NCBI RefSeq assembly: GCF_039920825.1
Contig: NZ_JBDSCX010000003.1
Span: forward strand, 25,385-89,384
Direction of reading: 5' to 3'
Length of the DNA stretch: 64,000 nucleotides
Source of the DNA: Luteolibacter sp.
GTDB taxonomy: Bacteria; Verrucomicrobiota; Verrucomicrobiia; Verrucomicrobiales; Akkermansiaceae
Shown: positions 1-64,000 of the stretch, one piece after another
Layout of the letters: each line of letters starts with the position of its first letter
Numbering within the stretch: the stretch's first letter is position 1
Program-made: the position numbers and the translations under genes
Notes under the pieces: generated by a model
Told to the model about the DNA's origin: nothing
The model's input: the letters and a program-made list of their open reading frames with translations, nothing else
Database searches by the model: none

Positions 1-1
1 T

Positions 2-730
2 CGCCTTCGCCGCGGGCAATCGGGTAAATGCCGTGTTAAGCATCTCATTGCTTGAACTGTCGACCTCCGCAACAATGTCCGACGTTTCGAGATTTCCTGC
101 CAGGACGCCTTGCACGATCATGGAGGTCAGATGCTGCGAATCGAGACCTGCCGCGCGCAGTTGCCCGATGTCGTCGCGGGTTACATTGAGAGGAGCTCCC
201 GCCTGACTCCCCATCATCAAAGTCCCGACCGCTCCGCTGATCGCCGCACGATGAAGGTCTTTTTCTTGAATGGAGGCGGCGGCGTCGAAGATGCTTTTCA
301 GGTCGGAGAATTGAGCCCGCATGAAGGCATTTTGGACGATGCTCTCGGAATAGTAGCCGGGAGGAAGCTGGGAAATGAGATCGTAGATCCGGGCATCTCC
401 ATTCCGCAGCATCTGTGTCAGGTTGTTCTCCAGTTTTTCCGCACCTTCGGATTCGGGCGTGAGCTTCTTTTCCTGGATGATCTGGCTTGCGGATTGAAAT
501 ATTTCCTCCAGCGCGGCTGCGGAAGGCGGTTGGTTTTCCGCGATGGCGGCCTCCTTCATTTCGCGCATGCTTTTTTCGGCAAGCAGACGTTCTCGGGACA
601 ATTGTTCCGAGGCACGTTCCGACTTTCCGGGCCGGCTGCGGTCTGGTGTGGCCGTCTTACGCTCAGCTTTGTCGCAGGATGAAAGACATGCACCTGCCGC
701 GAGGATGACGCAAAGAGTAAGATGTTTCAT
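2..730 (-). CDS. Hypothetical lipoprotein, 3' end runs off the window start (absent from the ORF track)
   Basis: Translated by hand from ATG at 730: MKHLTLCVILAAGACLSSCDKAERK..., lipobox LSSC. The frame stays open to position 2. The + ORF 110..682 is its antisense shadow. Confidence 0.75.
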   Translation of the reverse strand, partial: MKHLTLCVILAAGACLSSCDKAERKTATPDRSRPGKSERASEQLSRERLLAEKSMREMKEAAIAENQPPSAAALEEIFQSASQIIQEKKLTPESEGAEKLENNLTQMLRNGDARIYDLISQLPPGYYSESIVQNAFMRAQFSDLKSIFDAAASIQEKDLHRAAISGAVGTLMMGSQAGAPLNVTRDDIGQLRAAGLDSQHLTSMIVQGVLAGNLETSDIVAEVDSSSNEMLNTAFTRLPAAKA

Positions 731-973
731 GGTCGGGAGAAGCGGGGAAAGAATAGTTGGAGCTGGCGAAAGGCCGATTGGGTTGGGGACGCGCGGAGGA
801 AAATGGGGCGCTCGATTTTCCCGATGCCGAGGGCGTCGGGGTGGTCGTGAAGTCGTTGATGGAATACATGTAACATCCCGCGCGGATTGTGGTAGGAGAA
901 CCACATTTTGCGGGCAGTTCGGGGTTTTTCCACCCGGATTGACAACTTGGAGCCCGCACCGCATCTTTCGCCC

Positions 974-2080
974 ATGGTATCCGAGAAGCCAAGCGTGCTG
1001 ATGGGCAGGCAACCGCCGGTTTTCGCAATTTCCTGCTGGGCACTGGGGCTGATCGCCTTTTCCCAGTTGTTGATTGCAGGAATGGCGCTGGCCACGCGTT
1101 TCGAGGAGTCGCAAGTGGTGAAAGAGGTCATCAAGGTGGTTAATAAACCATACGTCGTGCGGGTTCCCGCGGCCCAACCCGAGCCTGAGCCGGCACGTGC
1201 GACCCCGTCCCTCACTTATCGGCCGACCGCGGTGATGGCCCCGGCGGAGACGCAACTCCTGCCTGCGCCGACGCCCGTCTCGACACCGAAAATCGCCGAT
1301 CCGCGCACCGAGCGGCTCGTCACCGAGGCCAAAAAAGCCCGCGTCGCCGGTGACATGGGACTGGCGATCATGAAACTGGAAGAGGCGCTCAACCAATCGC
1401 CGGATGACCCGAACGTGCATTACGAACTCGGCCTTGTCCACGAGCTGATGGGCGTTTTCGACACGGCCGCCGCCCATTTTGAAAAGGTCTATCAGATGGG
1501 TTCGGATGCTGGCTCGCTTTATGAACTTGCGGCGGGGAAACTGAAGGAAGGCTTCACGCAGCCCGACGATCACGGGAAGGTCTCGCTTGCCAGGATCCGC
1601 GTGTTCCAGAATCCTGACAAGGTGGACGGTGAGAAGGTCATCTTGACGATCCCGTTGCAGAAGGCGCCGGGTGAGGAAATCGATACCGGCGAACTGAAAG
1701 TCGTGCCCTACTTTTTCAACCGCACGTCCAAGGGCGAGATCGTCCAGTTGGAACCGCAGGAGGAATCCTGGGTGGTTTACCAGTGGATGTCGCTGCCGTT
1801 CGACTGGGCCAATGGCGAGGAAACCCTGCGAATCACCTACACCATTCCGCCGCAGGACCAGCAAACGGAACATCTTTTCGGCGAACGCACCTACTACGGC
1901 CAGGTCGTTTCGCTGCTCTACAAGGGCGAGGTGCTTGACGTGCAGGCGTGGCCGCCGTCACTCGCGGCGAAAATTCCCCAGGCACCCGCGGCGAATCCGC
2001 AACTGCCGGAATTCCAGGACGCCTTGCCTAACGAATTTGATCCGAACCTGCCGCTTCTGCCACCGCTTCCGATCAAGTGA
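974..2080 (+). CDS. Membrane-anchored TPR-containing hypothetical protein
   Basis: N-terminal TM (WALGLIAFSQLLIAGMAL), Pro/Ala linker, TPR-like helices (AIMKLEEALNQSPDDPNVHYELGLVHELMGVFDTAAAHFEKV). ATG 974 preferred over ORF start 908. Confidence 0.7.
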   Translation: MVSEKPSVLMGRQPPVFAISCWALGLIAFSQLLIAGMALATRFEESQVVKEVIKVVNKPYVVRVPAAQPEPEPARATPSLTYRPTAVMAPAETQLLPAPTPVSTPKIADPRTERLVTEAKKARVAGDMGLAIMKLEEALNQSPDDPNVHYELGLVHELMGVFDTAAAHFEKVYQMGSDAGSLYELAAGKLKEGFTQPDDHGKVSLARIRVFQNPDKVDGEKVILTIPLQKAPGEEIDTGELKVVPYFFNRTSKGEIVQLEPQEESWVVYQWMSLPFDWANGEETLRITYTIPPQDQQTEHLFGERTYYGQVVSLLYKGEVLDVQAWPPSLAAKIPQAPAANPQLPEFQDALPNEFDPNLPLLPPLPIK

Positions 2081-2105
2081 TTTTCCCTGACGCTGTTCCT
2101 CATCC

Positions 2106-3590: not shown

Positions 3591-3599
3591 TGAGACAGC

Positions 3600-4094: not shown

Positions 4095-4131
4095 GACGGT
4101 TGGAGGAGTCCGACTACTACACGGCCCGCAA

Positions 4132-5024: not shown

Positions 5025-6404
5025 ATGAAGCGATCAACGACATTCGCCATTGTTGCGGGCTCTGTGGGTCTTGCCGCCATTTCAAATGCCCAGTTGCCCA
5101 CTTCGTCCTCCCTCGCGATCAGCCCCGGCGGCGCGGGCTTCCGCATGGAGCTGTCCGACCCCGGAAACCACGCGTGGCGGATGGAGCAGTCCGCCAACCT
5201 CCGCGATTGGACGCTGGTCACCACAACCAAGGTGCACAACGGCCGCTTCATCTATCAATGGGCCGCAGGTTCGGGAAATACCTACTATCGCGCGGGCTAC
5301 GATGCCAACGTGCAGAACCTTACCAGCACGCTGCTGACCGCGGTGAAGCTCGCGGCGACTCCGGCGAACTATTCCGTCATCCCACTTCCTCCGCACCTGC
5401 TGAACGGGCAGATCGCCGGGCAGAACAACACGCCGGCCACCAACCCGACGACCGATCCCGGAGCCGAGCTGGGCCGCGTGCTTTTCTATGACAAGCGGTT
5501 GTCCTTCAACCAAACCGTTTCCTGCTCGTCATGCCATCAGGCCGAACATGGATTTTCCGACCCTCGTCCGTTCAGTCCGGGTTTCGCGGGCGGACTGACT
5601 TCGCGAAACTCGATGGGCCTGACCAGCGCCCGCTATTATGTTCGCGGCCATTTCTTCTGGGACGAGCGGGCGAACACACTTGAAGACCAAGTGCTTCAGC
5701 CGATCCAGAACAGTGTGGAAATGGGCATGACCTTGACGGCGCTCAACACCCGCCTTGCAGCCGAGCCGTTCTATGCGGATCTCTTCCAGCGGGCTTTCGG
5801 AACGACGGCGGTCACATCGAACCGCATCTCGCTGGCGCTCGCCCAGTTCGTGCGCTCGATCGTTTCCTATCAGACGAAGTTTGATCAGGGCGTGCCGGTG
5901 AATTTCAGCAACTTCACCTCGCAGGAAAACCTCGGCCGCCAAATTTTCAACGGCCAGGTTGGAAACGCCACCTGCAATGCCTGCCATGGCAGCGACAACT
6001 TCGTCCCGGGCAATGTCGTCAACAACAACGGCCTTGAAAATCCCTATATCGACAAGGGAATCGGCGAGCTAACAGGACTGCCGCAGGACGAGGGATTGTT
6101 CAAGGTGCCGTCGCTGCGCAATATCGCGCTCACCGCACCTTACATGCACGACGGACGGTTCGCGACGCTGGAGCAGGTGGTGGAATTCTATAACTCCGGA
6201 GTCGTCGCCCATCCGAACCTCTCCGTTCCGTTGCGGGCCGGCCCGCCACCCGGCCCCGGCCAGCCACCGCCGCCCGCGGTGCCGCTCCGGTTGAATCTAA
6301 CCGCAGGACAGAAGGCCGCGCTCGTCGATTTCCTCAAGACCCTGACGGACACGGCCGTGACGACCGATCCGAAATTCCAAGATCCTTTCAACTACGGCCA
6401 GTAG
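5025..6404 (+). CDS. Di-heme cytochrome c peroxidase (CCP/MauG family), secreted
   Basis: Two CxxCH motifs (CSSCH, CNACH), LGRVLFYDKRLS, FFWDERA, FKVPSLRNIALTAPYMHDGRFATLEQVVEFY. Signal peptide from ATG 5025. Confidence 0.92.
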   Translation: MKRSTTFAIVAGSVGLAAISNAQLPTSSSLAISPGGAGFRMELSDPGNHAWRMEQSANLRDWTLVTTTKVHNGRFIYQWAAGSGNTYYRAGYDANVQNLTSTLLTAVKLAATPANYSVIPLPPHLLNGQIAGQNNTPATNPTTDPGAELGRVLFYDKRLSFNQTVSCSSCHQAEHGFSDPRPFSPGFAGGLTSRNSMGLTSARYYVRGHFFWDERANTLEDQVLQPIQNSVEMGMTLTALNTRLAAEPFYADLFQRAFGTTAVTSNRISLALAQFVRSIVSYQTKFDQGVPVNFSNFTSQENLGRQIFNGQVGNATCNACHGSDNFVPGNVVNNNGLENPYIDKGIGELTGLPQDEGLFKVPSLRNIALTAPYMHDGRFATLEQVVEFYNSGVVAHPNLSVPLRAGPPPGPGQPPPPAVPLRLNLTAGQKAALVDFLKTLTDTAVTTDPKFQDPFNYGQ

Positions 6405-10065: not shown

Positions 10066-10170
10066 AAAGTCGGCCCCGTCCGCTTGATTGGGTTCCGAAG
10101 TGAAATGAGGAACCGTGCGGCATCGGAAATTTTCTCGTTTCGTCATCGTGGTTTGGTGTTTCCTCTCCTC

Positions 10171-11643
10171 ATGCCCGATCCGGTTCATGCCCTCTATCAA
10201 GCTCGCGCGTACCCGGCCGTCAGTCATCCGTCGACCGATCCGGCGTCCACGGCGGTCGCGGCAAAGTTGGCGGGGCTGGACGTCACGCCGCCATCGCGGG
10301 CCCGGATTCTGGACATTGGATGCGCCTCGGGGCAAAACCTGCTGCCACTGGCCGCAAGGTGGCCGGGCAGCCGTTTTACCGGGATTGATTTTTCAGAAAC
10401 GGCGATCGAAGAGGCCCGCGAAATCGCGGGTCTTGCAGGGTTGACGAACGTGGAGTTCATTCATGCCGATCTGCGGGATTTCGATCCGGGCGACGCGGTG
10501 AGCTACGATTTCATCATCGCCCACGGCGTTTATTCCTGGGTGCCGGATGAGGTGAGGCAGGCGTTGCTGGATTTCTGCGGCGCGAAACTTTCCAGCAACG
10601 GAGTGGCGCTGATCAGTTACAACACTCTTCCCGGGTGGTCGCTGCGAAAGACGATTGCCGATCTGACGGAAACGCTGATTCGGCGGCCCATTGCCAAACA
10701 GATCGGACAAGAGCCCGAAGCGATTCTGGGGCTTTTCGCCACGGCGGCGGGAAATCACACCCCTTATGCCCGGTATCTAACATCGGTGTTGCACGACATG
10801 TTCGGAAAGGGCGACAACGCGCACGTGTTCGATGATTTCGCGCCGATCAATACGCCTAGTAACTTCCTAGATTTCACGGATCACGCGGGCCGGTCCGGTT
10901 TGCGGTATCTGGGCGAGTCCCGGCTTGCCGAAGACTTTCCAGCCTCGCTGGCTCGCGAAGCTGCGGAAATTCTCAAGCCAATGGCAGGTGATCCTTCCGC
11001 GCTCCAACAGACCATCGACGTGCTGACGAACCGCACGTTTCGCAGCTCGCTGCTGTGCCGCGCGGATGCGCCGGTTCAGAGCCGGGTCGCGACGGCCGAC
11101 ATCCTCGATTTCTCCATCAGGACTCCGCACGCTTTCGAATTAACCTCGGATGGCGCGCGTTTGCTGGGGAATGCGGGTGAGGAGCTTGCCCGATTCGTCC
11201 ATCCGGCGGAGGTGGCGTTTTTCTCCGCTTTATCGAAGACCCGGCCCGAATCGGTGCCGGTTCACGAAGTGATCGCGAACATGGCGGAGAATTCGTTCGA
11301 TGTCTCCGGAAGCGTGCCATTGCTCGTGCGGTTGGTGATCGACTCGGCCCGCCGGGGGCTCGTTTTACTGCGAACCGAACCGGTGCGGTTTGATGCGGCA
11401 CCACCCGCATTTCCCAATCTCGGCCCGCTGCGCCTGCTGTCTGCTAGAAGAGGCAGGGCGGTGGTGGATACTTATCATTCATTCAGCGAACTCGATGATT
11501 CACGGAGAAAAATCGCCGCCGCGATGGACGGTTCGCGCTCGGCGGATGAATTGGCGGCTTTGGCGAAGACGATGCTGCCGGATCTTGATTTCCTTGCATG
11601 GCTCCGTCATCTCGCCGCACGGGGAATGTTTGCCGGTTGTTAG
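10171..11643 (+). CDS. Class I SAM-dependent methyltransferase with methyltransferase regulatory domain (PKMT-like)
   Basis: ILDIGCASGQN, FTGIDFS, YDFIIAHGVYSWVP, ISYNTLPGW, NRTFRSSLLC. Start likely 10171. Confidence 0.85.
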   Translation: MPDPVHALYQARAYPAVSHPSTDPASTAVAAKLAGLDVTPPSRARILDIGCASGQNLLPLAARWPGSRFTGIDFSETAIEEAREIAGLAGLTNVEFIHADLRDFDPGDAVSYDFIIAHGVYSWVPDEVRQALLDFCGAKLSSNGVALISYNTLPGWSLRKTIADLTETLIRRPIAKQIGQEPEAILGLFATAAGNHTPYARYLTSVLHDMFGKGDNAHVFDDFAPINTPSNFLDFTDHAGRSGLRYLGESRLAEDFPASLAREAAEILKPMAGDPSALQQTIDVLTNRTFRSSLLCRADAPVQSRVATADILDFSIRTPHAFELTSDGARLLGNAGEELARFVHPAEVAFFSALSKTRPESVPVHEVIANMAENSFDVSGSVPLLVRLVIDSARRGLVLLRTEPVRFDAAPPAFPNLGPLRLLSARRGRAVVDTYHSFSELDDSRRKIAAAMDGSRSADELAALAKTMLPDLDFLAWLRHLAARGMFAGC

Positions 11644-13859
11644 GAGAAATTCAACGCGTCCATGTCGAAGACCACGGTGACATCTTCAGGCAGGCTGGTT
11701 TTTGCAAGGATGGCTTGAACGTGGTTTGTCAGCGGCCGGGCACGGTGGGAGCGCAAGGTGATCTGGAACCGAAATTGGCCGTGGGAGCGGATCAGCGGCG
11801 AGGGCAGGACCTCGCCGAGGGTGATGCCGTTAGGAATATTTTCCGCGAGGCGGAGATGCAGGGTTTGCAGGGTGAACTCGGCGCGACGCTCGTGGGTGGA
11901 GCGGCTTGTTAGCACGGCGCAGTGTGCGTAGGGCGGGAAGGAGAACTGGCGGCGGAACTCCATTTCCTGTTCGGAGAAACCGTCGAAGTCATGTTTGCGG
12001 GCGAACTGGATCGATGGCGAATGAGGGGTGAACGTTTGGACGATGACTTCGCCCTCGAGATCGCCACGACCCGCGCGACCGGCCACCTGGGTGACGAGCT
12101 GGAACGTGCGCTCGCCGGCGCGGAAATCGGGGACATGCAGGCCGAGGTCGGCATTCAAAATCCCAACGAGCGTGACGTTGGGGAAATGCAATCCCTTGGC
12201 GATCATCTGCGTGCCGATCAGGATGTCGATCTTGTGCGCCTTGAATGCTGATAGCGTATCCCGCAGCGCGTTTTTCCGGCGCATGGCATCCGCATCGATG
12301 CGGGCGAATTTCGCTTTTGGAAACACCTTTGCCATTACCTCCTCGACCTTCTGCGTGCCGTAGCCTTGCAGGAGGATGTTGGGATCGCGGCACTCGGGAC
12401 ACTTGCGCGGGACGATGGATTGATAGCCGCAAACGTGGCAGACCAGCCGTTCGTCGGTGCGGTGATAGGTGAGAGCGACGGCACAATGCGGACACTGGCA
12501 GACATGGCCGCAGGCGGTGCATTGCAGCGAACGGGCGAAGCCGCGGCGGTTGAGAAAGAGGATGGCTTGCTCGCCTTTTTCCAGCCGTTGTTCGAGAGCG
12601 GTACGGAGCTTGTCGGAGAGAATCGCGGGACCGCCCTTGTGTTTGGTTTGTTCCAGCCGCATGTCCACGACTCTAACCAAAGGCATGGAGGCGCCGTCGG
12701 CGCGCTGGTCGAGCCGGAGAAGATCGTATTTGTCCGTGAGCGTGTTGTTCCACGATTCCAACGATGGAGTGGCAGAGCCTAATACAATCGCGCAAGGCTC
12801 GAAAGCGGCCCGCAAAACGGCAACATCGCGGCCATGGTAGCGCGGGACGTTTTCCTGCTTGTAGGTGTTCTCGTGTTCCTCATCGACGAGGATCAACCCG
12901 AGGTCGGGCAGCGGTGCGAAAACGGCGGAGCGCGCACCGATGACGATGCGGGCGATTCCCTTTCGGATGCGATGCCATTCATCGAAACGCTCGCCTTGAG
13001 AGAGATTGGAGTGGAGCACGGCAACGTGGTCCTGCATCGCGGCGAAGCGGGACTTGAACCGGCGGACGGTTTGTGGTGTTAGGGAAATTTCCGGAACGAG
13101 GACGAGCACGGTTTTTCCGAGATCGAGCGCGTGTTGGGCGGCTTGCAGATAAACTTCGGTTTTCCCGGAGCCTGTGACGCCGAGCAGCAGGATGGGTTTT
13201 GATTCTTTCGGGTTGGCGACCGCGGCGAGAACCACTTCGAGCGCGGCGGCTTGACCCGGGTTGAGTTCGAGCGGCTTGGACTCGAGGATTTCATCGACGT
13301 TGTCGGCGTCCGGATCGCGGCGGACTTCCTCGGCCTCGAGTCGGAGCAGGCCGGCCTTCTCCATCGATTTCAAAGCGGCGGCATTGCCATCGCCGAGGTC
13401 GGCGACGGCCATCCGCAGATCGGGAGCATGGGCTAACAGCGAGAGGATGGCAAACTGGCGCGGCGCGCGTTTTTCCAATTTCGCGAGCGTCTCGGGATCC
13501 GGCGCTGCATCCAGTACGGCCACCCGGCGGGTCTTCGCGGAGTTTTCCTCCGATCGCACGCCTTCGGGCAGAACCGAACGAATGACCGACTCGATACTGG
13601 AGCCGTAGTAGTGAGCGATCCATTCCGCGGTGCGCAGCAGCACCGGCGTGATGAGTGGCTCCGGGTCGATGAGCGATTCCAGCTCGCGCAGGGCGAAATC
13701 CGCCTGCTCCGGCTCGCCGGTGGAGAGCACGGTGCCGGTCGCCGATTTCCGCCGCAGCGGAATACGCACGCGGCAGCCCGGACGCACGTTGAGTCCTGCC
13801 GGAATGGCATAGTCGAAGACGAGCTCCGAGGGGCCGTCGATCAGGACACGGGCGTTCAC
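11640..13859 (-). CDS. priA: Primosomal protein N' (replication restart helicase)
   Basis: GVTGSGKTEVY, VPEISLTPQ, DEEHE, LGSATPSLES, CxxC motifs, GTQMIAKGLHFP, QVAGRAGR. Start GTG 13859 or TTG 13895. Confidence 0.97.
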   Translation of the reverse strand: MNARVLIDGPSELVFDYAIPAGLNVRPGCRVRIPLRRKSATGTVLSTGEPEQADFALRELESLIDPEPLITPVLLRTAEWIAHYYGSSIESVIRSVLPEGVRSEENSAKTRRVAVLDAAPDPETLAKLEKRAPRQFAILSLLAHAPDLRMAVADLGDGNAAALKSMEKAGLLRLEAEEVRRDPDADNVDEILESKPLELNPGQAAALEVVLAAVANPKESKPILLLGVTGSGKTEVYLQAAQHALDLGKTVLVLVPEISLTPQTVRRFKSRFAAMQDHVAVLHSNLSQGERFDEWHRIRKGIARIVIGARSAVFAPLPDLGLILVDEEHENTYKQENVPRYHGRDVAVLRAAFEPCAIVLGSATPSLESWNNTLTDKYDLLRLDQRADGASMPLVRVVDMRLEQTKHKGGPAILSDKLRTALEQRLEKGEQAILFLNRRGFARSLQCTACGHVCQCPHCAVALTYHRTDERLVCHVCGYQSIVPRKCPECRDPNILLQGYGTQKVEEVMAKVFPKAKFARIDADAMRRKNALRDTLSAFKAHKIDILIGTQMIAKGLHFPNVTLVGILNADLGLHVPDFRAGERTFQLVTQVAGRAGRGDLEGEVIVQTFTPHSPSIQFARKHDFDGFSEQEMEFRRQFSFPPYAHCAVLTSRSTHERRAEFTLQTLHLRLAENIPNGITLGEVLPSPLIRSHGQFRFQITLRSHRARPLTNHVQAILAKTSLPEDVTVVFDMDALNFS

Positions 13860-13919
13860 TGCCCGGAGCCTGCCCGCCGGAACCGGGCTGGCCAAGATTC
13901 AATTCTTGATCTGATGAAT

Positions 13920-29363: not shown

Positions 29364-30266
29364 ATGATCACCATCCGCAGCCTTCAAAAACGCTTCCAAG
29401 GCAACGATGCCCTGCGTGGCGTCGATCTCGACATCCCGCAGGGAAAAGTCACCGCCTTCCTCGGTCCTAACGGCGCGGGCAAGACGACGACCATCAAGTG
29501 CGCGATGAACCTCATCGACCGCGATTCCGGCGAGGTGTCGGTGATGGAAACCGATGCCCGCGAGCTGGGTCCGAAGCAATGGCAGCGGATCGGTTACGTT
29601 TCGGAAAACCGATTGATGCCGGAGTGGATGACGGTGCCGAAGCTGCTCGACTACGTGAGGCCGATGTATGGCGAATTCTGGGACCGGGATTTCGAGAAAA
29701 AGTTGCTCGCGGGATTCGAGCTGCCGTTGAAAACCAAGCTGCGCTCGCTCTCCCGTGGCCAGAAAATGAAAGCAGCGCTGCTCACCGCGCTGGCCTACCG
29801 GCCGCAGCTCATCGTCCTCGACGAACCCTTCACCGGCCTTGATCCGCTGGTGCGCGACGAATTTCTAACCGGCCTGCTTGAACTCACCGAAACCGAAGGC
29901 TGGACTGTGTGGATTTCCTCGCACGACATCGAGGAGGTCGAGCGCTTCGCCGACCGCGTGGCGATCCTCAACAGCGGGCGGGTGGACTTGCAGGAGGACG
30001 TCGAAACGTTGCAGGCCCGCTTCCGTGCCATCGAGCTGTGGTTCGACGACACCGCCACCTTGCCGGGAAATCTGCCGGAAACGTGGATCAATGCTCAAGC
30101 GAACGGCCGGACCATCCGTTTCATCGACACCCACCACGACGAGGCCAGATTTTCTGGAATGTTAGTATCTATCTTCCCCGGCCATCAACGTTACGAAGCC
30201 CGCCGCATGACCTTGCGCGAGATCTTTGTGGCCCTCGCCCGCAACTATCGCACTCAACCTTACTGA
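29364..30266 (+). CDS. ABC transporter ATP-binding protein (YtrB-like)
   Basis: GPNGAGKTT, LSRGQ, LDEPFTGLDP, SSH. Confidence 0.93.
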   Translation: MITIRSLQKRFQGNDALRGVDLDIPQGKVTAFLGPNGAGKTTTIKCAMNLIDRDSGEVSVMETDARELGPKQWQRIGYVSENRLMPEWMTVPKLLDYVRPMYGEFWDRDFEKKLLAGFELPLKTKLRSLSRGQKMKAALLTALAYRPQLIVLDEPFTGLDPLVRDEFLTGLLELTETEGWTVWISSHDIEEVERFADRVAILNSGRVDLQEDVETLQARFRAIELWFDDTATLPGNLPETWINAQANGRTIRFIDTHHDEARFSGMLVSIFPGHQRYEARRMTLREIFVALARNYRTQPY

Positions 30267-31955: not shown

Positions 31956-32729
31956 ATGCGAAAACGCTGGCTCATCCCGATCGCGCTGCTGGCCTTGGCC
32001 GGTGGCGCGGGGTGGTGGTTTCGCGGGGCGTTGGGCACCTGGATCCATTCGAATTTGGGCGGCGTGGAGTCGGTCCTGCTGAAAAGGCCCAAGCCGGATC
32101 CGAAGACTTACGCCACTCTAACTAACGATCTCGAACGCCGGAGGAAGGATCTGGCGGCTCGTCATGCCAAAGCGAAAACCGCAGGGGAGCGGGCGGCAAT
32201 CGAAGCGGATGCCCGGGCCCTGTTGGAGACATCGTTGCCGGCGATGATGCGTTGCTGGCTCGGCACGCCGTGGGATTTCAACGGGACGGCGAAAGGGCCG
32301 GGGGATGGCAAAATTGCCTGTGGTTATTTCGTGGCGACGGTTTTGAAAGATGCCGGATTCCAAGTGGATCGCTATCAGCTCGCACAGCAGGCGTCGGAAA
32401 ACATTTTACGCTCGTTCATTCCGCGCGAGTCCTGTGCGTTGAGCGTTGGCAAGGAATTCAAATCATTCGCCGAGGAAGTCGGGAAACGCGAACCCGGGGT
32501 GTATGTGATCGGACTCGACACCCATGTGGCCTTCATCGTCGTCGGGGATGGCGGCTTCCGGTTCATCCACTCCTCCGGCTCGAAACCTTGGTGCGTGGTC
32601 GATGAAAGCCCGGATCAGGCAGGCGTGTTGCAACGCTCGAATTGGCGGATGCTCGGCAATCTAACCGCCGATGCCGCCGTGCTGAGACATTGGCTGAAGG
32701 CGGACAAGATCGTGGTCCGCGGGACCTGA
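31956..32729 (+). CDS. NlpC/P60-like (papain-fold) membrane-anchored protein
   Basis: WLGTPWDFNG, IACGYFVATVLKDAG, DTHVAFIV, FIHSS (Cys/His pair). Confidence 0.65.
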   Translation: MRKRWLIPIALLALAGGAGWWFRGALGTWIHSNLGGVESVLLKRPKPDPKTYATLTNDLERRRKDLAARHAKAKTAGERAAIEADARALLETSLPAMMRCWLGTPWDFNGTAKGPGDGKIACGYFVATVLKDAGFQVDRYQLAQQASENILRSFIPRESCALSVGKEFKSFAEEVGKREPGVYVIGLDTHVAFIVVGDGGFRFIHSSGSKPWCVVDESPDQAGVLQRSNWRMLGNLTADAAVLRHWLKADKIVVRGT

Positions 32730-38481: not shown

Positions 38482-39128
38482 TCGATGGAATAACCGTGGC
38501 CGCGACGCGTGGTGATGAAATCCGCGCCCAGTTTTTTCCGGATGTTGGAAACATGTACATCCAGAAGGTTGGAAAGCGTGTCGTCATCCTCGTCGAAGAG
38601 ATGCTCGTAAAGCTCGCTGCGGCTGACGACCTGGCCGCGATGAAGGGCGAGGTATTCGACCAATGCGTATTCGCGGGCAGTTAGGGAAATTTCCCCGCCG
38701 TCCTTGCTGACGGTCCTTGCCGCGGTGTCGATGGTGATGCCGCTGACTTCCATCAGGCTGGACGCTTGTCCGGAACTGCGCCGGATCAACGCGCGGATGC
38801 GGGCTAACAACTCGTCGCTGTCGAAAGGTTTCGTCAGGTAATCATCCGCTCCGGCATCCAGTCCGCGGATCCTGTCGGGCACCGCGTCGCGCGCGGTGAG
38901 CATGAGGACCGGTGTTTTCTTGAGCGGGCGCAAACGGCGGAGCACTTCCCAGCCGTCGAACACCGGCAGCATGCCGTCGAGGACGATGCAGTCGTAGTCG
39001 GACGCGCTCGCCTTGAAGAGACCCGCCTCGCCGTCATCCGCGGTATCGACGGCGTAGTTCTCCTCGCGCAGGCTCGCGGCGAGACTGCGTTGCAGGAGTT
39101 GGTCGTCTTCGATGATGAGCAGGCGCAT
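38478..39128 (-). CDS. OmpR-family response regulator
   Basis: LLIIEDD, IVLDGMLP, LMLTA, GADDYLTKPF, VHVSNIRKKL...TRRGHGY. Confidence 0.95.
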   Translation of the reverse strand: MRLLIIEDDQLLQRSLAASLREENYAVDTADDGEAGLFKASASDYDCIVLDGMLPVFDGWEVLRRLRPLKKTPVLMLTARDAVPDRIRGLDAGADDYLTKPFDSDELLARIRALIRRSSGQASSLMEVSGITIDTAARTVSKDGGEISLTAREYALVEYLALHRGQVVSRSELYEHLFDEDDDTLSNLLDVHVSNIRKKLGADFITTRRGHGYSIE

Positions 39129-40449: not shown

Positions 40450-41145
40450 CTAGCGGGTTACGATGTCGTCGGAGATCAGTCCGTCGCGGACGTGGATGAT
40501 GCGGCGGGCGCAGGCGGCGACCTCATCTTCGTGGGTGACCATGATGATGGAGATGCCGCGGTCCGAGTTGAGCTTGCGGAGGAGCTCCATGATCTCGACG
40601 GTGGTTTTGGAATCGAGGTTGCCGGTCGGTTCGTCGGCGAAAAGCGTGTCGGGTTTGGTGACGATGGCACGGGCGATGGCGACCCGCTGCTGTTGGCCGC
40701 CGGAAAGTTCTGCCGGGGTGTTGCGCTCCTTGTCCGACAGGCTGACCTGAGCCAGCGCCTCGCGGGCCATCTCATGGCGTTGTTTTCTGGAATAGCCGCG
40801 ATAAAGCAGCGGAAGCTCCACGTTCTCAAGCGCCGAGGTCCGGGCGAGCAGGTTGAAGCCTTGGAAAATGAATCCCAGCGCGTGCCGGCGGAGCAGCGAG
40901 CGCTGGTCCTTGTTGAGGTGCTCCACGGCGATTCCCTTGAACAGATAGGAGCCGGCGGTGGGGGTGTCGAGGCAACCTAACAAATTCATGAGCGTCGATT
41001 TCCCCGAGCCGCTGGGACCCATGACGGCGACGAACTCGCCACGATGGATAGTTAGATCCACTCCGCGGAGGGCGAGGAACGCGGCCTCGCCCGAGCCGTA
41101 GCGTTTGGTCAGGCCGTGCAACTGGATGAGCTTTTCGGGGTTCAT
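40450..41145 (-). CDS. ABC ATP-binding protein (MacB/LolD type)
   Basis: GPSGSGKST, LSGGQQQR, ADEPTGNLD, VTH. Confidence 0.95.
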   Translation of the reverse strand: MNPEKLIQLHGLTKRYGSGEAAFLALRGVDLTIHRGEFVAVMGPSGSGKSTLMNLLGCLDTPTAGSYLFKGIAVEHLNKDQRSLLRRHALGFIFQGFNLLARTSALENVELPLLYRGYSRKQRHEMAREALAQVSLSDKERNTPAELSGGQQQRVAIARAIVTKPDTLFADEPTGNLDSKTTVEIMELLRKLNSDRGISIIMVTHEDEVAACARRIIHVRDGLISDDIVTR

Positions 41146-44879: not shown

Positions 44880-45650
44880 ATGACGCGCTCCCCGCTTTAC
44901 CTCAGCTACGGCATGCCGAAGTCGGGAAGCACGCTCGCTTTCGAACTGACGCGGACGATGCTCGAACTCGCCGGAGTTCCCCAAATCAAAATCGGCGAAG
45001 GCGTCACCGATCCGGAGGCGAAGATCAATTTCGTCCACAAGCTCGATGGCCCGGGATACGAAAAACTGCGCGACGAGGCGAAGACCATTTCCCGTCCGAT
45101 CGTGATCAAAACCCATTCGCGATTGTTTCCGCGTCTGGAGAAACTGCTGCAAAGCGGGAAATTGTTAGGCCACGCCATCTGCCGCGATCCGCGCGACATG
45201 GCGCTCTCCATGTTGGACGCCGCACGCGAAGGCCGCGCCTGGGGCGGCAGCGAGGAAACCCGTTTCAAGACCGTGGCGGATACCGAGAAACGCCTTCACA
45301 AGAGCATCGAGATGTTTACGAAATGGGCCGCATCGCCTAACATCATGCCGATCCACTATGAGCGCCTGGCCTTCGATACCGAGACCGTCGCCGCCGAGAT
45401 CGCCGCGCAACTCGGCATCACGGTGGACATTCCCAAAGCCATCGAAATCGCGACCGGCACCAAGTTCACCCAGCTCAACCAAGGCGTTTCCCAACGCTGG
45501 AAAACCCAGATGGATCCCGCCGACGCGAAGCGGCTGGAGGTGACGTTCAAGGATTACATCCAGACCTACTGTCAGGATGTGCCGTCCGCACCCAAGGAAC
45601 GCAAGCCTCCCTCGGGATTCCTCGCGAAGTGGCTGCCGCGTAAGGGTTAG
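44880..45650 (+). CDS. Sulfotransferase-fold protein
   Basis: SYGMPKSGST (5'-PSB), IKTHS, CRDPRDMALS (3'-PB), IHYERL. Confidence 0.78.
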   Translation: MTRSPLYLSYGMPKSGSTLAFELTRTMLELAGVPQIKIGEGVTDPEAKINFVHKLDGPGYEKLRDEAKTISRPIVIKTHSRLFPRLEKLLQSGKLLGHAICRDPRDMALSMLDAAREGRAWGGSEETRFKTVADTEKRLHKSIEMFTKWAASPNIMPIHYERLAFDTETVAAEIAAQLGITVDIPKAIEIATGTKFTQLNQGVSQRWKTQMDPADAKRLEVTFKDYIQTYCQDVPSAPKERKPPSGFLAKWLPRKG

Positions 45651-51688: not shown

Positions 51689-51774
51689 GGAAAAGTTAGA
51701 AGTGTGTTCCGGCTGTCTCAGCCGGAATATTCAGCGGCTTCGCACCCGGCTGAGACAGCCGGGACACATTATAG

Positions 51775-53088
51775 TTAGAAATCCAGATAGATCTCCGTCC
51801 GGCGGTTGGCGCGGCGGCCTTCGGGATTGTCGTCGCCGGTTTCGGTGGTGTTGGGGCGGCGCGGCTGGCTGTCGCCCTTGGCCACGGTGATGATCTGTTT
51901 GGCATCCACACCCGCCTTGGTGAGATAGTCGCGGACGACATCGGCGCGGCGGGAGGAGAGCTGGTTGTTGTAGTCCTTGGTGCCGAGCGCGTCGGTGTGG
52001 CCGCTGAGCGTGATCTTCTTGCCGGGATCGGACTTGAGGATGAGGGTGACGATTTCCAACTGGCGGCGCGTGCGGGGGTTCATCACGTCCTCGTTGAACT
52101 CGAAGTAGAGCGCGAGCGTGTCGCCACCGGCGGGATTCTTGACGAGCGGCGAGTAGTAGATGTCGCCGCCGGCGACGCGGCGGGCGTAGTCGGCGAGGAG
52201 TTGGTTGAGATTGATTTCCGAGACGATCCAGTTAGACGGCGCGGGAGGTTGTTTGAGGGTCATCGCGAATTGCGCGGTTTCCTTGCCGTCGGTGCTTTCG
52301 ACATTGGCGAGATAACCGACGGTGTCCTGGCGCTGGAACATCGAACGCAGCGGCTTGGATTTGCGGAGCCGGTAGTTGCCCTCTTCAAACAGAATGCACA
52401 GCCCGGCGATCTTGGCGTCCGATACGGTCGCGGGATCGACAAAGGCGCGGGCGAACTCGAAATCCTGCTTCAGCACGGCTTGGAGAAACGCATCGGCCAC
52501 GCCTAACGAATCCGCGAAGACCGCCTTGGGAATCGGCTCGCCGGGACCGGGGGGCAGAGTGATTTTTTCGACCGCCCACTTGCCCTGGTTGCGGCGGAGA
52601 TCGAGGAAAATGCTGTCGCGGCCGGGTTCCTGACCGGCGAGTTCGAGAGCCCAGCGCGAGCGGGCGTTGAGCTCGAGTTCGCCGACTTCGCGCACGCCGT
52701 CGGGCTGGCGGAGGCGGAGCGGCGTGGCGGAAAGTTCCTTGAGGCGGGCGATGGTTTGCGAATCGAGCGCGTCCTTGCCGATGAGGCGGCCGACCTTCGC
52801 GAGATCACCCGCTTCGAGCGCCTTGGCGATTTGTGAAACGAGCACCGCTGGATCCGCGGCGGTCACACCGACGCCGAGATCTGCTAGGACGGTGTCGGCA
52901 TCCTCGGGTGCGACCGGCTCGGCCAGGCCATTGATTTTTGGCGGAGCCACCGGTGATGCGACTTGCGGATGAACGGCTTCGGGTGTCTTCGGATGGACGC
53001 CGGGGCGGACGATCAGCAAGACCAGGGCCGCTGCGGAGATCACCGCCGCAAGACCGAGGAAAAAGTAGGGAAGCTTGGATCGTTGCAT
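51775..53088 (-). CDS. OmpA/MotB-like peptidoglycan-binding domain protein
   Basis: LYFEFN, LSGHTDALG..YNNQLSSRRADVV..YL, NRRTEI. N-terminal TM. Confidence 0.9.
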   Translation of the reverse strand: MQRSKLPYFFLGLAAVISAAALVLLIVRPGVHPKTPEAVHPQVASPVAPPKINGLAEPVAPEDADTVLADLGVGVTAADPAVLVSQIAKALEAGDLAKVGRLIGKDALDSQTIARLKELSATPLRLRQPDGVREVGELELNARSRWALELAGQEPGRDSIFLDLRRNQGKWAVEKITLPPGPGEPIPKAVFADSLGVADAFLQAVLKQDFEFARAFVDPATVSDAKIAGLCILFEEGNYRLRKSKPLRSMFQRQDTVGYLANVESTDGKETAQFAMTLKQPPAPSNWIVSEINLNQLLADYARRVAGGDIYYSPLVKNPAGGDTLALYFEFNEDVMNPRTRRQLEIVTLILKSDPGKKITLSGHTDALGTKDYNNQLSSRRADVVRDYLTKAGVDAKQIITVAKGDSQPRRPNTTETGDDNPEGRRANRRTEIYLDF

Positions 53089-59752: not shown

Positions 59753-59755
59753 CGG

Positions 59756-61255
59756 TTAGAGGAAGCCGGCGGGATGAAGCGTGTCCACGAGGTATTGCTG
59801 GCGGGACATCAGTTCCTGATACATCTCGTGTGCCTGCGGATCCGGGTCGCAACGGGATTCTGAATCGCCCGCGACCAGGTAGCTGGCGATTTCCTCAAAA
59901 CCTAACGACTCACCGCTCTGATGGAAAAACGCCACCGCCGCCTGCATCGCCGCGCCCACGGCGGCTCCCTGCCTGCTGGAAACAGGAACCACCGGCGCGC
60001 CGAAGACGTCGGCCAGCAGTTGGCGCGTCACCGGACTGGCCACACCCGGACCTAACAAACGAATTTCCGGTGGATCGAAACCCAAATCGCGCAGCCGGCT
60101 CATCGCGTAACCAAGACCTAACGCCACGCCCTCCGCCGCCGCCCGGGCCATGTGCGCGGGGGTGAAATTTTCCGGAGTGATGCCGTGCAAGACACCAGTG
60201 CCATCCGGCAGGCGGGGGATCGATTCACCGGTGAAATACGGCAAAAGTAGCAGTCCGTCCGCACCCGGCGAAACGCTCGCGACCATCGCTTCGAACTGTT
60301 GCGGACTCCAGCCGTAGTGACGTCGCAGGACTTCGGGAGCCACTGCCGCGTTCGTCGTCGTTGCAAGACCGAGCCAACTGCCCGTCGCGCTGCAAAGCGG
60401 GGTGATTTCTCCGCGGAAATCGATCACCGGAGCATCGCCGACGCCGACAATCACGCCGGACGATCCGAGTTCGACCGCCACCGTGCCGTTCGTGACACAT
60501 CCGGCGGCGAGCGCGGCCAACATTGGCGACGCGCTGCCGGCACCGACCTGCACCAGTTCCGAAACGCCCCATTCGCGGGCCAGCGCCGGACGCAACAAGC
60601 CGCGAGGTTGATCGGACGGACCGATGGGTGCCAGCAGCGAGGCCAGAGCCGGGTCAATGAAATCAATGAGCTCCGCCGACCACTTCCGCGTGCGGATGTC
60701 TAACAATCCGGTTCCCGACGCGCTGCCGGCCTCGGTGGAACGTTCGCCCGTCAGCCAGTAGGCGATGAAATCCTGCGCGGTGAGCAGGCTGGCGGCGCGT
60801 TGAAAATGATAGGGTTCGTGCTGTTTCAGCCACAGGCATTCCGCTGCCGCCGACTCCACTCCGGGTGCTTGTCCCGCGACCTCGATCAATCCGGGTGCGC
60901 CGCCGAACGCGCGGGCGATTTCGTCCGCCTGCTTCTTTACCGAGACGTCACCCGCGAGTTTCGCCGGGCGGATGATGCGGTTGGCTTCGTCCAGCAAAAC
61001 AAGCCCGCGTTGGGGGCCTGCCACGCCGATGGCCGCGACGCGATCTTTCTGGCCTTCGAGCGCGGCAAGGCATTGGCGCACCGCGCGGTCCACGGCGTCG
61101 ATCCACTGCGCCGGACTCTGCTCGCGATAGCCTGCCGGAAGTCCTTCGATCCAATCGTGGGGGACCCACGCTTCGGCACGGATCACCGCGGATTCCAGAT
61201 CCAAGGCTACGGCGCGGGTGCCGCCATGGCCGATTTCAATCCCCAGAAAGTGCAT
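59756..61255 (-). CDS. FGGY (xylulokinase-like) family protein with degenerate active site
   Basis: EQSPAQW..AV..AV, WLKQHEP, DFIAYWLTGE, LLLLPYFTGE. Phosphate-1 and catalytic motifs are altered. Confidence 0.85.
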   Translation of the reverse strand: MHFLGIEIGHGGTRAVALDLESAVIRAEAWVPHDWIEGLPAGYREQSPAQWIDAVDRAVRQCLAALEGQKDRVAAIGVAGPQRGLVLLDEANRIIRPAKLAGDVSVKKQADEIARAFGGAPGLIEVAGQAPGVESAAAECLWLKQHEPYHFQRAASLLTAQDFIAYWLTGERSTEAGSASGTGLLDIRTRKWSAELIDFIDPALASLLAPIGPSDQPRGLLRPALAREWGVSELVQVGAGSASPMLAALAAGCVTNGTVAVELGSSGVIVGVGDAPVIDFRGEITPLCSATGSWLGLATTTNAAVAPEVLRRHYGWSPQQFEAMVASVSPGADGLLLLPYFTGESIPRLPDGTGVLHGITPENFTPAHMARAAAEGVALGLGYAMSRLRDLGFDPPEIRLLGPGVASPVTRQLLADVFGAPVVPVSSRQGAAVGAAMQAAVAFFHQSGESLGFEEIASYLVAGDSESRCDPDPQAHEMYQELMSRQQYLVDTLHPAGFL

Positions 61256-61412
61256 GGTTGGTGTCCTAAGAATCGCAAGGTCCGTCAAACAAGGTGGGAG
61301 GACGGGTGCCGCGAGTTTCAACACGATGGAGGATTTGACAAGTCCCGCCGTCGTGGAAATCCGCAGGGACCGCGGGTTTGACATGATTTATAGAATTAGA
61401 TATTCAGCATCC

Positions 61413-62180
61413 ATGAACGACACGCCGCAAGATGCTTGGTTTTACTCGGGAGAGGGCGAGAGGATCGGGCCCGTGACCCTTTCCGATCTGCGGATCAAGG
61501 CGACAGACGGGGAATTGAACCCGCGCCTCGACATGGTGTGGACGCAAGGCATGGACGCTTGGAAACCCTCGGGCGAAATCGAGGGGCTGTTCGAGCGGCG
61601 GACGGCTCCCGAGCCCGCGCAAACCTTGGGACCGCCGACGGATCCCTACTCGCCGCCCAAGCAGGAAACCGCTGCGGAAGTGATGGGCAAGGAAGGCGGA
61701 TGGCCGGGAGCGAGACGGCGGAGTTACCTGCTTATCACATTGTTCTTCCCGGGCTTGTGGGTGTATGGAGTTGCGGCGGCGATGCCGTTTCTCACGTCAC
61801 AATTCGGTCCTCAAATCATGATATTCGCCTCACCGGGGATCCGTTTGATTCCTGCTCTGGTATTTATCTTTATCGGGCTGAGGCGCTTGGTGAATTTGGG
61901 CATGAGCCGCTGGTGGTTTCTCGGGAATTTTGTCCCGATCCTTGGCTTCTGGGTCGGCTACCGTTGTTTCGCCTGTCCGGGCGGATTCGCCTATCACAAG
62001 AAACTCGATGGTGCGGGGATCTTTCTTGCGATTGTTTACTGGCTTCTGTTAGCCATCGGACTCGTGGTGATGGGACTCTTGATCGCGATTTTGCTGGGTG
62101 CCTTCGGCTCTCCCGAGCTTCGGGACCAAATCCGTGAAATCATGCGCCATGCGGCGAATGGTTCCCCACCGAAACCGTGA
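61413..62180 (+). CDS. GYF_2 (DUF4339) domain membrane protein
   Basis: WFYSGEGERIGPVTLSDLR...VWTQGMDAWKP, followed by TM helices (RRLVNLGMSRWW). Confidence 0.82.
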   Translation: MNDTPQDAWFYSGEGERIGPVTLSDLRIKATDGELNPRLDMVWTQGMDAWKPSGEIEGLFERRTAPEPAQTLGPPTDPYSPPKQETAAEVMGKEGGWPGARRRSYLLITLFFPGLWVYGVAAAMPFLTSQFGPQIMIFASPGIRLIPALVFIFIGLRRLVNLGMSRWWFLGNFVPILGFWVGYRCFACPGGFAYHKKLDGAGIFLAIVYWLLLAIGLVVMGLLIAILLGAFGSPELRDQIREIMRHAANGSPPKP

Positions 62181-62224
62181 TCCAATATTCCAAACAGACC
62201 GACGAACGCCGCGAGGCCGGACCG

Positions 62225-62962
62225 ATGGAATGTTGGTGTCTCCACGGGGCCGTCGGCATGGCGGCGGATTGGCGCGGCTTTGCGAAAAGCATGGCCGCCA
62301 CCGGGATCGGGACCCGCGCCATCGATTCATGGCGGTTTCTCGAATGCTGCCCCATGCCGCTAACGGATTTCGGGAAGGCGCTCAATGCCGACGCCAGCGG
62401 CGAAGTCTTCCGTGGGAGCAGCCGTGCTCTTCTCGGTTACTCGATGGGTGGTCGGATGGCATTGCATTCTTTGTTAGAAGACGGTCATCCGTGGCAGGCG
62501 GCCATCATCGTTTCCGCCCATCCAGGATTGGATTCCGAAACAGAGCGAGCGGACCGCCGCGCCTCCGACGCCGGATGGGCAACTCAAGCACTGGCTGGTG
62601 ATTGGCAGAAATTTCTCACCGCATGGAATGCCCAACCCATCCTAGGTGATGCGGCGATGCGTGATCCGCAGGCCTCCGGCCGGCTCATCATGCGCCGCCG
62701 GGAAATCGCCCGCAGCTTTGTCGATTGGTCGCTCGGGGCCCAGGAGCCGTTGTGGGATCGTCTCGGCAAGATCACGATTCCCGTCCTGTGGGTCGCCGGG
62801 GAAAACGACACGAAATTCCGCGCTCTCGCCGAACGCGCCTCATCCCTGATACCGAAGGGCTGCGTCGCGATCGCTCCTGGAACTGGTCATCGCGTGCCTT
62901 GGGCAGCGGAAACGTGGTTTGCCGAGACGGTCGGCAGTTTCCTGAAACTTGGTTACGTTTGA
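62225..62962 (+). CDS. menH: Alpha/beta hydrolase, probable SHCHC synthase
   Basis: LHG, LLGYSMGGRMAL, RRASDAGWA, GENDTKF, GHRVP. Directly upstream of menB. Confidence 0.75.
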   Translation: MECWCLHGAVGMAADWRGFAKSMAATGIGTRAIDSWRFLECCPMPLTDFGKALNADASGEVFRGSSRALLGYSMGGRMALHSLLEDGHPWQAAIIVSAHPGLDSETERADRRASDAGWATQALAGDWQKFLTAWNAQPILGDAAMRDPQASGRLIMRRREIARSFVDWSLGAQEPLWDRLGKITIPVLWVAGENDTKFRALAERASSLIPKGCVAIAPGTGHRVPWAAETWFAETVGSFLKLGYV

Positions 62963-63013
62963 GCCCGCATCGGAGTTGCGGGCGCATGGTCGATCGTCCA
63001 AACTGCTGCCCTT

Positions 63014-63829
63014 ATGTGGACCACTGTGCGCGAATTCGAGGACATCCGTTTTGAAACGACGGATGAGGGAAGTATTGCCAAAATCACCATCAACCGCCCC
63101 GAAGTGCGCAACGCCTTCCGCCCGCAGACGGTGAAGGAAATGCTGATCGCTTTCGATCTTGCCCATGAAGATCCCAAGGTCGGCGCGATCATCCTCACCG
63201 GCGCGGGCGATCTCGCATTCTGCTCCGGCGGCGACCAGAAAGTCCGCGGCCACGCCGGCTACATCGGCGAGGATGGCATCCCGCGCCTCAACGTGCTCGA
63301 TTTGCAGAAGAAAATCCGCTCCCTGCCCAAACCCGTCGTCGCGATGGTCGCCGGTTACGCCATCGGTGGCGGTCACGTTTTGCACATTGTCTGCGACCTC
63401 ACCATCGCCGCCGACAACGCCCGCTTCGGCCAGACCGGTCCCAAGGTCGGCTCGTTCGACGGCGGCCTCGGCTCCAGCTACCTCGCCCGCATCGTCGGTC
63501 AGAAAAAAGCCCGCGAAATCTGGTATCTCTGCCGCCAATACGACGCCCAACAAGCTCTCGACATGGGCCTCGTCAACACCGTTGTCCCGCTCGCCGATCT
63601 CGAAAAGGAAACCCTCCAGTGGTGCCGCGAAATGCTCGCCCATTCGCCACTCGCCCTGCGTTGTTTGAAATCCGCGCTCAACGCCGATTGCGACGGCCAG
63701 ATGGGACTTCTCGATCTAGCAGGAAACGCCACGCTTCTCTACTACATGAGCGAGGAAGGCCGCGAAGGGAAACAAGCCTTCCTTGAAAAACGGAAACCGG
63801 ATTTCTCGAAATTTCCACGGGTGCCTTGA
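63014..63829 (+). CDS. menB: 1,4-dihydroxy-2-naphthoyl-CoA synthase
   Basis: [42 protein letters not shown]. Confidence 0.97.
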
Positions 63830-63862
63830 TCCGGCCCCGGTGTTTTCCAACTCCCATTCCCC

Positions 63863-64000
63863 ATGCCCGCCAAGAAATCCCGCGCGAAGAAAAAATCCGC
63901 CGCCATCCCGCTCCCATCCGCCGCCGATTGGCGCACCACGGACCAGGACGAGATTCTCCGTCGAGTCCAGCGCGCCCGCGATGAGAAACACGGCATCACC
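63863..64000 (+). CDS. 5' fragment of a CDS running off the window, possibly a SWIM/SNF2-type helicase
   Basis: MPAKKSRAKKK...WRTTDQDEILRRVQRARDE. Family guess from memory only. Confidence 0.45.
   Translation, partial: MPAKKSRAKKKSAAIPLPSAADWRTTDQDEILRRVQRARDEKHGIT

Follow-up and report, generated by a model that had tools for sequence, protein, structure and literature searches.

The stretch of DNA studied here (64,000 nucleotides, hereafter the window) comes from a Luteolibacter-like member of the Akkermansiaceae, and corresponds to C3:25385-89384 of its 6.76 Mb draft genome (G000, 91 contigs, 58.6% GC). We found that the pentamer CTAAC, read as GTTAG on the other strand, greatly exceeds its siblings CTAAA, CTAAG and CTAAT (together CTAAD), and that it is best explained as a lineage-specific genome word. 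By analogy with known systems, this word may be a self tag for DNA uptake or recombination that has spread through molecular drive, a reading that we put forward tentatively and at clearly less than an even chance.

In the window, 56 copies of CTAAC on the forward strand and 43 on the reverse strand (as GTTAG) give a total of 99 dispersed sites, about 1.5/kb. The first-pass annotation, made from the letters of the window, had estimated about 95 copies split 55/42, and the exact count bears this out. The siblings were much rarer on both strands (CTAAG 9, CTAAT 8, CTAAA 13; 30 for the CTAAD sum), and GTAAC occurred 31 times. Dinucleotide-preserving shuffles of the window (n=100) yielded 29.6±5.6 copies of CTAAC with a maximum of 50, compared to the 99 observed, and 93±9 copies of CTAAD, compared to the 30 observed.

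The complete draft contains 8,656 copies of CTAAC/GTTAG (4,290 on the forward and 4,366 on the reverse strand), that is, about one per 800 bases or 1.3/kb. Under a maximal-order Markov null, CTAAC ranked first among all pentamers, with an observed-to-expected ratio (O/E) of 1.99 (z 65), whereas CTAAA, CTAAG and CTAAT reached only 0.42-0.49. Within-gene shuffling of synonymous codons gave an excess of 2.36x (z 72), rising to 3.4x for CCTAAC, 4.7x for TCTAAC and 5.1x for CTAACA. A log-linear fit on the other NTAAN words predicted about 1,150 copies, which corresponds to a specific excess of 7.5x; this ratio of the observed count to the expectation from the sibling fit is called the sibling index below. 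The first-pass annotation had remarked that the total lies near the naive expectation from base composition, and this is right: TA is extremely scarce in the genome (O/E 0.41), and the naive O/E is 0.84 for CTAAC versus 0.09 for CTAAG. With flanks included, the naive expectation is exceeded, by 3.2x for GCTAACAG. The excess persisted under the dinucleotide, Markov and codon-shuffle nulls which that annotation had proposed as checks, and O/E did not settle near 1.

Analysis of the flanks in G000 showed that A is scarce at position -1 (12%), that A or G occupies position +1 in 70% of copies, and that G or A is preferred at +2, so that the word is best written YCTAACR. The flank information is weak, at about 0.1-0.2 bit per position. 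A long repeat or mobile element as the source of the copies was rejected, because conservation ends at -2 to +4.

To place the word relative to the reading frames, we used approximate gene calls based on open reading frames (ORFs), which comprise 3,932 genes and cover 79% of G000. Compared to the codon shuffle, CTAAC was enriched in each frame in which it can occur, with an O/E of 4.2 for CTA-AC, 1.5 for xCT-AAC, 1.5 for GTT-AG, 3.6 for G-TTA-G and 2.8 for the stop-containing xGT-TAG, while CTAAG/CTTAG in coding frames gave 0.12-0.46. The word is attained against codon preference. CTA makes up 19.1% of the Leu codons before Thr and 2.9% elsewhere; xCT codons account for 9.7% before Asn, with AAC as the next codon in 93% of these, and for 1.9% before Lys; and 86% of the TTA codons that precede a G-starting codon come after a G-ending codon. 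At stop codons, 251 of the 965 TAA stops have the form C-TAA-C, and 72 GT-TAG stops were observed versus 26 expected. Short spacers (30-300 bp) hold 345 copies versus 99 expected, at a density of 1.8/kb compared to 1.24/kb within genes. These results show that CTAAC is enriched on both strands, in every legal frame, at stops and in short spacers, and the cause therefore acts on DNA and not on translation: a sequence-specific process on double-stranded DNA raised CTAAC in native DNA. The first-pass annotation had described a HIP1-like iterated word that makes use of synonymous codons and of the choice of stop codon; this description is supported, and so is action at the DNA level.

The density of CTAAC was also found to double in the first 60 bp past stop codons of G000, in either orientation. 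The first two 30-bp bins after the stop contain 277 CTAAC and 190 GTTAG, compared to about 75 and 55 in each gene-internal bin of the same width.

The same word was found in relatives. In 557 kb from 35 related assemblies, 737 copies of CTAAC were counted versus 130-238 for each sibling. The recurrence of this excess in dozens of independent assemblies from different studies excludes an assembly artefact, and settles the reservation in the first-pass annotation that a technical or recoding artefact might be involved. The sibling index was high in G000 (7.5), G452 (6.7), G138 (6.5), G117 (4.7), G062 (4.4), G130 (3.4) and G101 (3.1), and low in G113 (1.4), G215 (1.3), G114 (1.1) and G002 (1.0). 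Many Akkermansiaceae thus share the CTAAC excess, in graded strength. Whole-genome counts of YCTAACR relative to the reversed word ranged from 0.05 to about 3 within the Akkermansiaceae and from 0.02 to 0.2 in most of the phylum, a ratio that is confounded by GC content and TA depletion and gives rough rankings, so that the sampled genomes were rechecked by the sibling index. One genus (g19, 43-45% GC) showed a high reversed-word ratio but a sibling index of 1.3-2.0.

Copy density reaches 2.7/kb in G138, spans 2.0-2.7/kb in G101 and G138, and is 1.9/kb in G452, whereas G113, from the same genus as G138, has 0.083 copies/kb. In G138 the word takes the form T-CTAAC-A-(G/A)-A; TCTAACA occurs 351 times in 314 kb of this genome versus about 34 by naive expectation, and 3 times in 400 kb of G113. 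The low-GC relatives carry (W)TCTAACAG(A), and the form in family f1 is T-CTAAC-A-G/A. In G452, which belongs to another family, the same core has other flanks, GC-CTAAC-GA, that is GCCTAACGA versus TCTAACAG. The core is thus conserved and the flanks are lineage-specific, like dialects. Whether orthologues keep their sites at the same positions was set aside as a criterion, because this comparison was noisy and its data were non-independent.

Analysis of the gaps between copies in G000 revealed that neighboring sites avoid each other. The O/E of gaps was 0.27 for 6-20 bp, 0.55 for 20-50 bp and 0.78 for 50-100 bp, and in the two shortest bins CTAAC was the lowest of 185 similarly abundant pentamers (medians 1.1-1.2). 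We then applied a strict null in which, gene by gene, occupancy was permuted among the synonymous opportunities belonging to one class. The results showed 27 gaps below 20 bp versus 130 expected (z -9.2), a ratio of 0.44x for 20-50 bp (z -8.9) and 0.73x for 50-100 bp, and an excess of 1.28x for 200-400 bp (z +10.5), with all four orientation pairs behaving alike. The pattern recurred in loci of the 35 relatives (below 20 bp 0.17x, z -3.1; 200-400 bp 1.36x, z 4.6). The word is therefore subject to local saturation: where one copy is present, another is disfavoured over the nearest 100 bp or so, whichever its orientation.

Along G000, the density of CTAAC is fairly even, at 12.9 per 10 kb, except for islands, about 450 kb of the genome, in which the siblings are the more numerous. 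The largest island (C42:308-364 kb) has 34 CTAAC and 109 siblings, compared to a genome-wide CTAAC/sibling ratio of 2.4, and coincides with a 56-kb conjugative element (C42:308000-364000) encoding a TrwC relaxase, a TraG/VirD4-type coupling protein and ArdC antirestriction. CTAAC is thus scarce in recently acquired mobile DNA. The same element also holds a fragment of an N6 methyltransferase and has a GC content of 52% versus 58.6% for the genome, and a RHS/YD-repeat protein of about 1,850 aa adjoins it.

No replication polarity was seen in G000, in which the share of CTAAC on the G-rich strand (0.429) falls in the middle of the values for 30 words with identical composition. In this draft, local GC skew largely follows gene orientation (r -0.55), hence the complete genome G101 was used, and there the strand share tracked GC skew in the same way as that of the control word CAATC (0.55/0.40 versus 0.53/0.41, by hand tally). 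Polarity of the type known from Chi or the FtsK-orienting polar sequences (KOPS) is rejected by the strand shares in both genomes, in line with the first reading of the window.

Individual sites of the window illustrate these frames. Those named in the first-pass annotation were all correct when the site list was compared with the ORF list, and they are given below together with one tandem pair.

29467..29471, forward strand: CTAAC in a Walker A motif (GPNGAGKT) of an ABC ATPase gene (29364-30266), GGT-CCT-AAC-GGC, with Pro-Asn as xCT-AAC.
6069..6073, forward strand: CTA-AC(A) over Leu-Thr, GAG-CTA-ACA, using the rare Leu codon CTA (site and ORF lists).
40977..40981, reverse strand: antisense G-TTA-G, TTG-TTA-GGT (Leu-Leu-Gly), using the rarest Leu codon, TTA (site list).
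38804..38808, reverse strand: another G-TTA-G, in GAG-TTG-TTA-GCC (site list).
11639..11643: a single GTTAG that provides both the TAG of a forward-strand gene (10084-11643) and the TAA of the convergent priA (11640-13895, reverse strand), in a 4-bp overlap.
45646..45650, forward strand: GTTAG containing the stop TAG of the gene at 44880-45650 (site and ORF lists).
51774..51778, reverse strand: C-TAA-C containing the stop TAA of the gene at 51775-53088 (reverse strand; site and ORF lists).
59755..59759, reverse strand: C-TAA-C containing the stop TAA of the gene at 59756-61384 (reverse strand; site and ORF lists).
32118..32126, forward strand: the sole overlapping tandem pair of the window, CTAACTAAC; close pairs are otherwise rare.

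The proposal of an uptake or recombination self tag is based on the match between these features and known systems. A DNA-level cause, presence on both strands, lack of polarity, a density of about 1/kb, local saturation, scarcity in mobile DNA and flank dialects are together what is seen in the DNA uptake sequences (DUS) of Neisseriaceae, the uptake signal sequences (USS) of Pasteurellaceae and HIP1 of cyanobacteria. CTAAC would then act like the Neisseriaceae and Pasteurellaceae sequences, and in the role now proposed for HIP1. A DNA-binding component of a type IV pilus/ComEC uptake pathway or of a recombination pathway would prefer CTAAC-bearing DNA; alleles bearing the word would be re-imported and recombined more often, so that it would accumulate by molecular drive and mark self DNA, and the flank preferences would drift between lineages to give the dialects.

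DUS, which are read by the minor pilin ComP, and USS resemble CTAAC in having thousands of copies at about 1/kb on both strands, strongly over-represented genome-wide in both orientations and free of replication polarity. They also lie in genes in all frames and in spacers with relatively even spacing, are under-represented in acquired DNA, combine a core with dialect flanks, and occur in genomes with uptake genes; each of these features was found for CTAAC. The spacing of USS is about 1 kb and relatively even (PMC7811141), and the dialects of DUS (PMC3630211) parallel the flank dialects of CTAAC. In contrast to the 9-12 positions of DUS and USS, the core of CTAAC has 5 bp, with at most 7-9 informative positions; it lacks paired terminator copies, no competence or receptor is known here, and the machinery genes do not co-vary with it. 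HIP1 (GCGATCGC) and the alternate cyanobacterial palindromes are likewise hyper-abundant, occupy synonymous sites in all frames, are clade-wide with exceptions, and long had an obscure function. The abundance of HIP1 was recently linked to genes of the type IV pilus and of competence, whereas no significant link to methyltransferases was seen (PMC13756078). Unlike these palindromes with orphan methyltransferase sites, CTAAC is asymmetric and none of the methyltransferases examined follows the trait; its excess is about 2-10x compared to 15-300x for HIP1, and it shows short-range repulsion instead of the 10-90 kb periodicity of HIP1 (PMC5861425).

Gene content was compared among the genomes, in which absence from draft assemblies or metagenome-assembled genomes is weak evidence. 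As in genomes with DUS or USS, the competence machinery is present, with ComEC in 69 of 70 genomes and PilM in 78 of 80. Several observations weigh against the self tag. ComEC and PilM are equally present in genomes without CTAAC excess and do not discriminate; no reader protein was found among the candidate families searched (Vsr, methyltransferases, ComEC, PilM, RecC and IntI), and no literature report of natural competence in Akkermansiaceae was found. A 5-bp core with weak flanks, as in G000, separates self from foreign DNA poorly; sites repel each other over about 100 bp, less than the usual length of tracts in uptake or recombination; and in the densest genomes, G138 and G101, this repulsion is weak or missing. 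The uptake model is permitted but not specifically supported by gene content.

In its broader form, the proposal is that CTAAC is the core of a previously unrecognised family of self-recognition words for uptake or recombination in Verrucomicrobiota, with the dialects TCTAACAG in Luteolibacter-like Akkermansiaceae and GCCTAACGA in another family, and a putative DNA-binding reader whose core contacts would be conserved. The identity of the word with the integron R-box core, discussed below, could point to a reader that integron-type tyrosine recombinases exploit or to which they are related. This wider claim is less probable than not by a clear step and is offered as a possibility. No paper describing the word was found in the literature.

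After the self tag, the next explanation in rank is that CTAAC serves for the docking of an abundant DNA-binding protein of the chromosome, either nucleoid-associated or using it as a non-polar protective site that stops a nuclease or translocase, with weak selection keeping about one copy per few hundred bp. A binding site for a nucleoid or repair protein had also been named as an alternative in the first-pass annotation. The repulsion below 100 bp irrespective of orientation and the excess of 200-400 bp gaps fit a footprint or a state in which one site is enough. The presence of the effect on both strands, in all frames and in spacers also speaks for it, lineage-specific flanks fit a co-evolving protein, and the scarcity of CTAAC in mobile DNA agrees with it as well. 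On the other side, there is no candidate protein, it is demanding for selection alone to maintain about 7,500 sites of weak benefit, and the repulsion is not seen in the densest genomes, G138 and G101. A search limited to RecC (PF04257) detected it in 0 of 43 genomes, which counts against a reader of the RecBCD/Chi type. Chi (read by RecBCD/AddAB), KOPS and the architecture-imparting sequences (AIMS) are similarly short, over-represented and asymmetric words on core DNA, but CTAAC, unlike them, has no orientation bias by GC skew or replichore, and the replication-co-oriented strand bias of Chi was not found for it. We regard a docking site as unlikely.

Context-dependent mutation bias, by which a hypermutable precursor word would produce CTAAC without a reader or a benefit, is an improbable cause. 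The graded and continuous distribution of the trait among relatives is in its favor, and so is the lower level in young foreign DNA, as slow amelioration predicts. However, the sites avoid each other, a pattern that neither independent mutation nor a bias of context only can produce (z about -9). G-TTA-G requires 2-3 coordinated changes from the common Leu codons and is yet enriched 3.6x; none of the single-step precursors CCAAC, CTGAC, CTCAC and CGAAC is depleted; and the information reaches 7-9 bp with lineage-specific flanks.

The core of the integron attC R-box is RYYYAAC/GTTRRRY, and CTAAC/GTTAG lies at the core of this box. An integron integrase or a related tyrosine recombinase could thus read CTAAC, the chromosome being seeded with docking or secondary (attG-like) sites. 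Both dialects fit YYYAAC, as GCCTAAC complements GTTAGGC and (A/T)TCTAAC complements GTTAGA(A/T). A true IntI (TIGR02249 above the cut-off) was detected in 31 of 49 genomes of the family, including G000 (C7:1678-2589) and G452, and the congener G002 has a cassette array whose attC sites of about 83 bp begin GCTAACAAG and finish GTTAGC. IntI1 has been reported to put cassettes into loose genomic sites (bioRxiv 10.1101/2022.09.11.507474). Against these points, no IntI was detected in G138 or G130, both strongly enriched, an absence from drafts that counts as weak evidence, whereas G002 and G114 have IntI in 2-3 copies and no enrichment (index 1.0 and 1.1). In G000, CTAAC...GTTAG pairs at attC spacing are depleted, and so are pairs of opposite orientation within 120 bp. 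There is no known route by which recombinase activity enriches its own core through silent substitutions, and the match to a degenerate 7-mer consensus was spotted after the fact.

Compared with attC, attI and attG sites, CTAAC has the R-box core, with the word and both dialects inside the consensus, and the family contains integrases and a CTAAC-type attC array. Its sites differ in being single unfolded words in ordinary genes; the folded attC architecture (R''...R' 50-130 bp apart) was not found, and the integrase, which does not co-occur with the trait, is neither necessary nor sufficient. Reading of the word by an integron integrase is a very improbable explanation, kept as a lead. The integron integrases of the family, noted among others in G101, G062, G092 and G159, often lie about 0.6-1.7 kb from a contig start, the cassette array of G002 is chromosomal (region C1:1947066-1967065), and in genus g23 the IntI domain forms part of longer open frames (about 620-770 aa) that could represent fusions.

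Methylation-linked repair, the mechanism suggested in the first-pass annotation, has similarly little probability. In this explanation, a methyltransferase marks CTAAC and short-patch repair linked to methylation turns near-cognates into it, as in the model of Elhai for HIP1 or in a Vsr/Dcm-like manner. HIP words have been linked to methyltransferases (PMC4390886). G000 has a solitary Vsr in a native-looking region, three C5 methyltransferase matches and several N6 methyltransferases. However, Vsr is missing in G138, G130, G170, G095, G003, G117, G062, G072, G092 and G051 and is found in the non-enriched G113, G007 and G075, and C5 methyltransferases are missing in G130, G062, G072, G051, G117, G091 and G452. 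The MmeI/Eco57I-type enzymes have no counterpart in the strongly enriched genomes. An orphan PF01555 enzyme of 279 aa did emerge from the methyltransferase search which that annotation had proposed, but it is conserved irrespective of the CTAAC trait and missing in G138, and other PF01555 matches are heterogeneous. Since none of these four families follows the trait, the suggested mechanism is unsupported. Moreover, the T-for-C neighbors CTAAT and TTAAC are depleted no more than CTAAG or CTAAA, and repair bias does not predict mutual repulsion of sites.

Very-short-patch repair by Vsr and Dcm in E. coli favors CCWGG against CTWGG, and CTAAC resembles this case in that one word is favored over its one-letter neighbors. 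It differs in that neither Vsr nor C5 methyltransferases track the trait, the neighbors lack T-for-C depletion, and CCWGG itself is avoided in G000. None of Vsr, the MmeI/Eco57I-type, PF01555 and C5 methyltransferases, ComEC, PilM, RecC and IntI was both necessary and sufficient as a reader.

The Vsr gene of G000 is located at C18:183345-183770 without an adjacent C5 methyltransferase. The 279-aa N6/N4 methyltransferase (PF01555, C89:146758-147597) is an orphan-looking core gene, present in four genera at 64-85% identity and absent from three others. Two MmeI/Eco57I-type paralogues of about 1,060-1,100 aa, which are type IIG/IIL or BREX PglX-like N6 methyltransferases, lie at C3:92496-95675 (3 kb past the window end) and C38:98549-101977, and both are strain-specific.

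An effect of translation or of codon pairs is scarcely credible, and so is an artefact of assembly or recoding: the related CTATC is enriched in some frames only, so that codon-context effects do exist in G000, but CTAAC is enriched antisense, in spacers and at stop codons, which rules out a codon-pair cause, and its signal is common to many independent assemblies.

Other words of G000 also deviate from expectation. CTATCAG/CTGATAG and TCTATCA are among the top over-represented 7-mers (2,287 copies, 4.6x the reversed word, and 0.9x in G113); the excess of CTATC varies with frame, with NNC-TAT-C and CTA-TC raised and xCT-ATC lowered, and is thus at least partly a coding-context effect. GTAC is near-banned across the clade (O/E 0.02-0.26 in the 35 relatives and about 0.1 in G000), and 314 kb of G138 contain only a few copies. 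GGCGCC, GTCGAC and CCWGG are strongly avoided in G000, and G113 avoids ACGT instead. These avoidances of GTAC, GGCGCC, GTCGAC, CCWGG and ACGT look like long-standing restriction avoidance unrelated to CTAAC; a link between GTAC avoidance and the CTAAC trait was rejected, as the two show no correlation. In addition, C44:12567-13722 of G000 contains an open frame with periodic RVIPTLVGKA, GHPHAGGES and SSPRWWGK, which represent one DNA repeat in three phases, and this locus is probably a CRISPR array or another tandem repeat and not a gene.

To our knowledge, self-marking by a hyper-abundant short word is known only in two bacterial families (DUS and USS) and arguably in cyanobacteria (HIP1). 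If CTAAC is indeed a self tag for uptake or recombination, it would be a third such system, in Verrucomicrobiota, and tags of this kind would be more widespread than thought. Natural transformation would then be predicted in a phylum without a documented case, including the relatives of Akkermansia that are of applied interest. The word could provide a handle for genetic tools, by its addition to donor DNA, and would help to spot islands of foreign origin in the genomes concerned. As the trait is graded within one genus and comes in two dialects, the reader should be findable by phylogenetic profiling.

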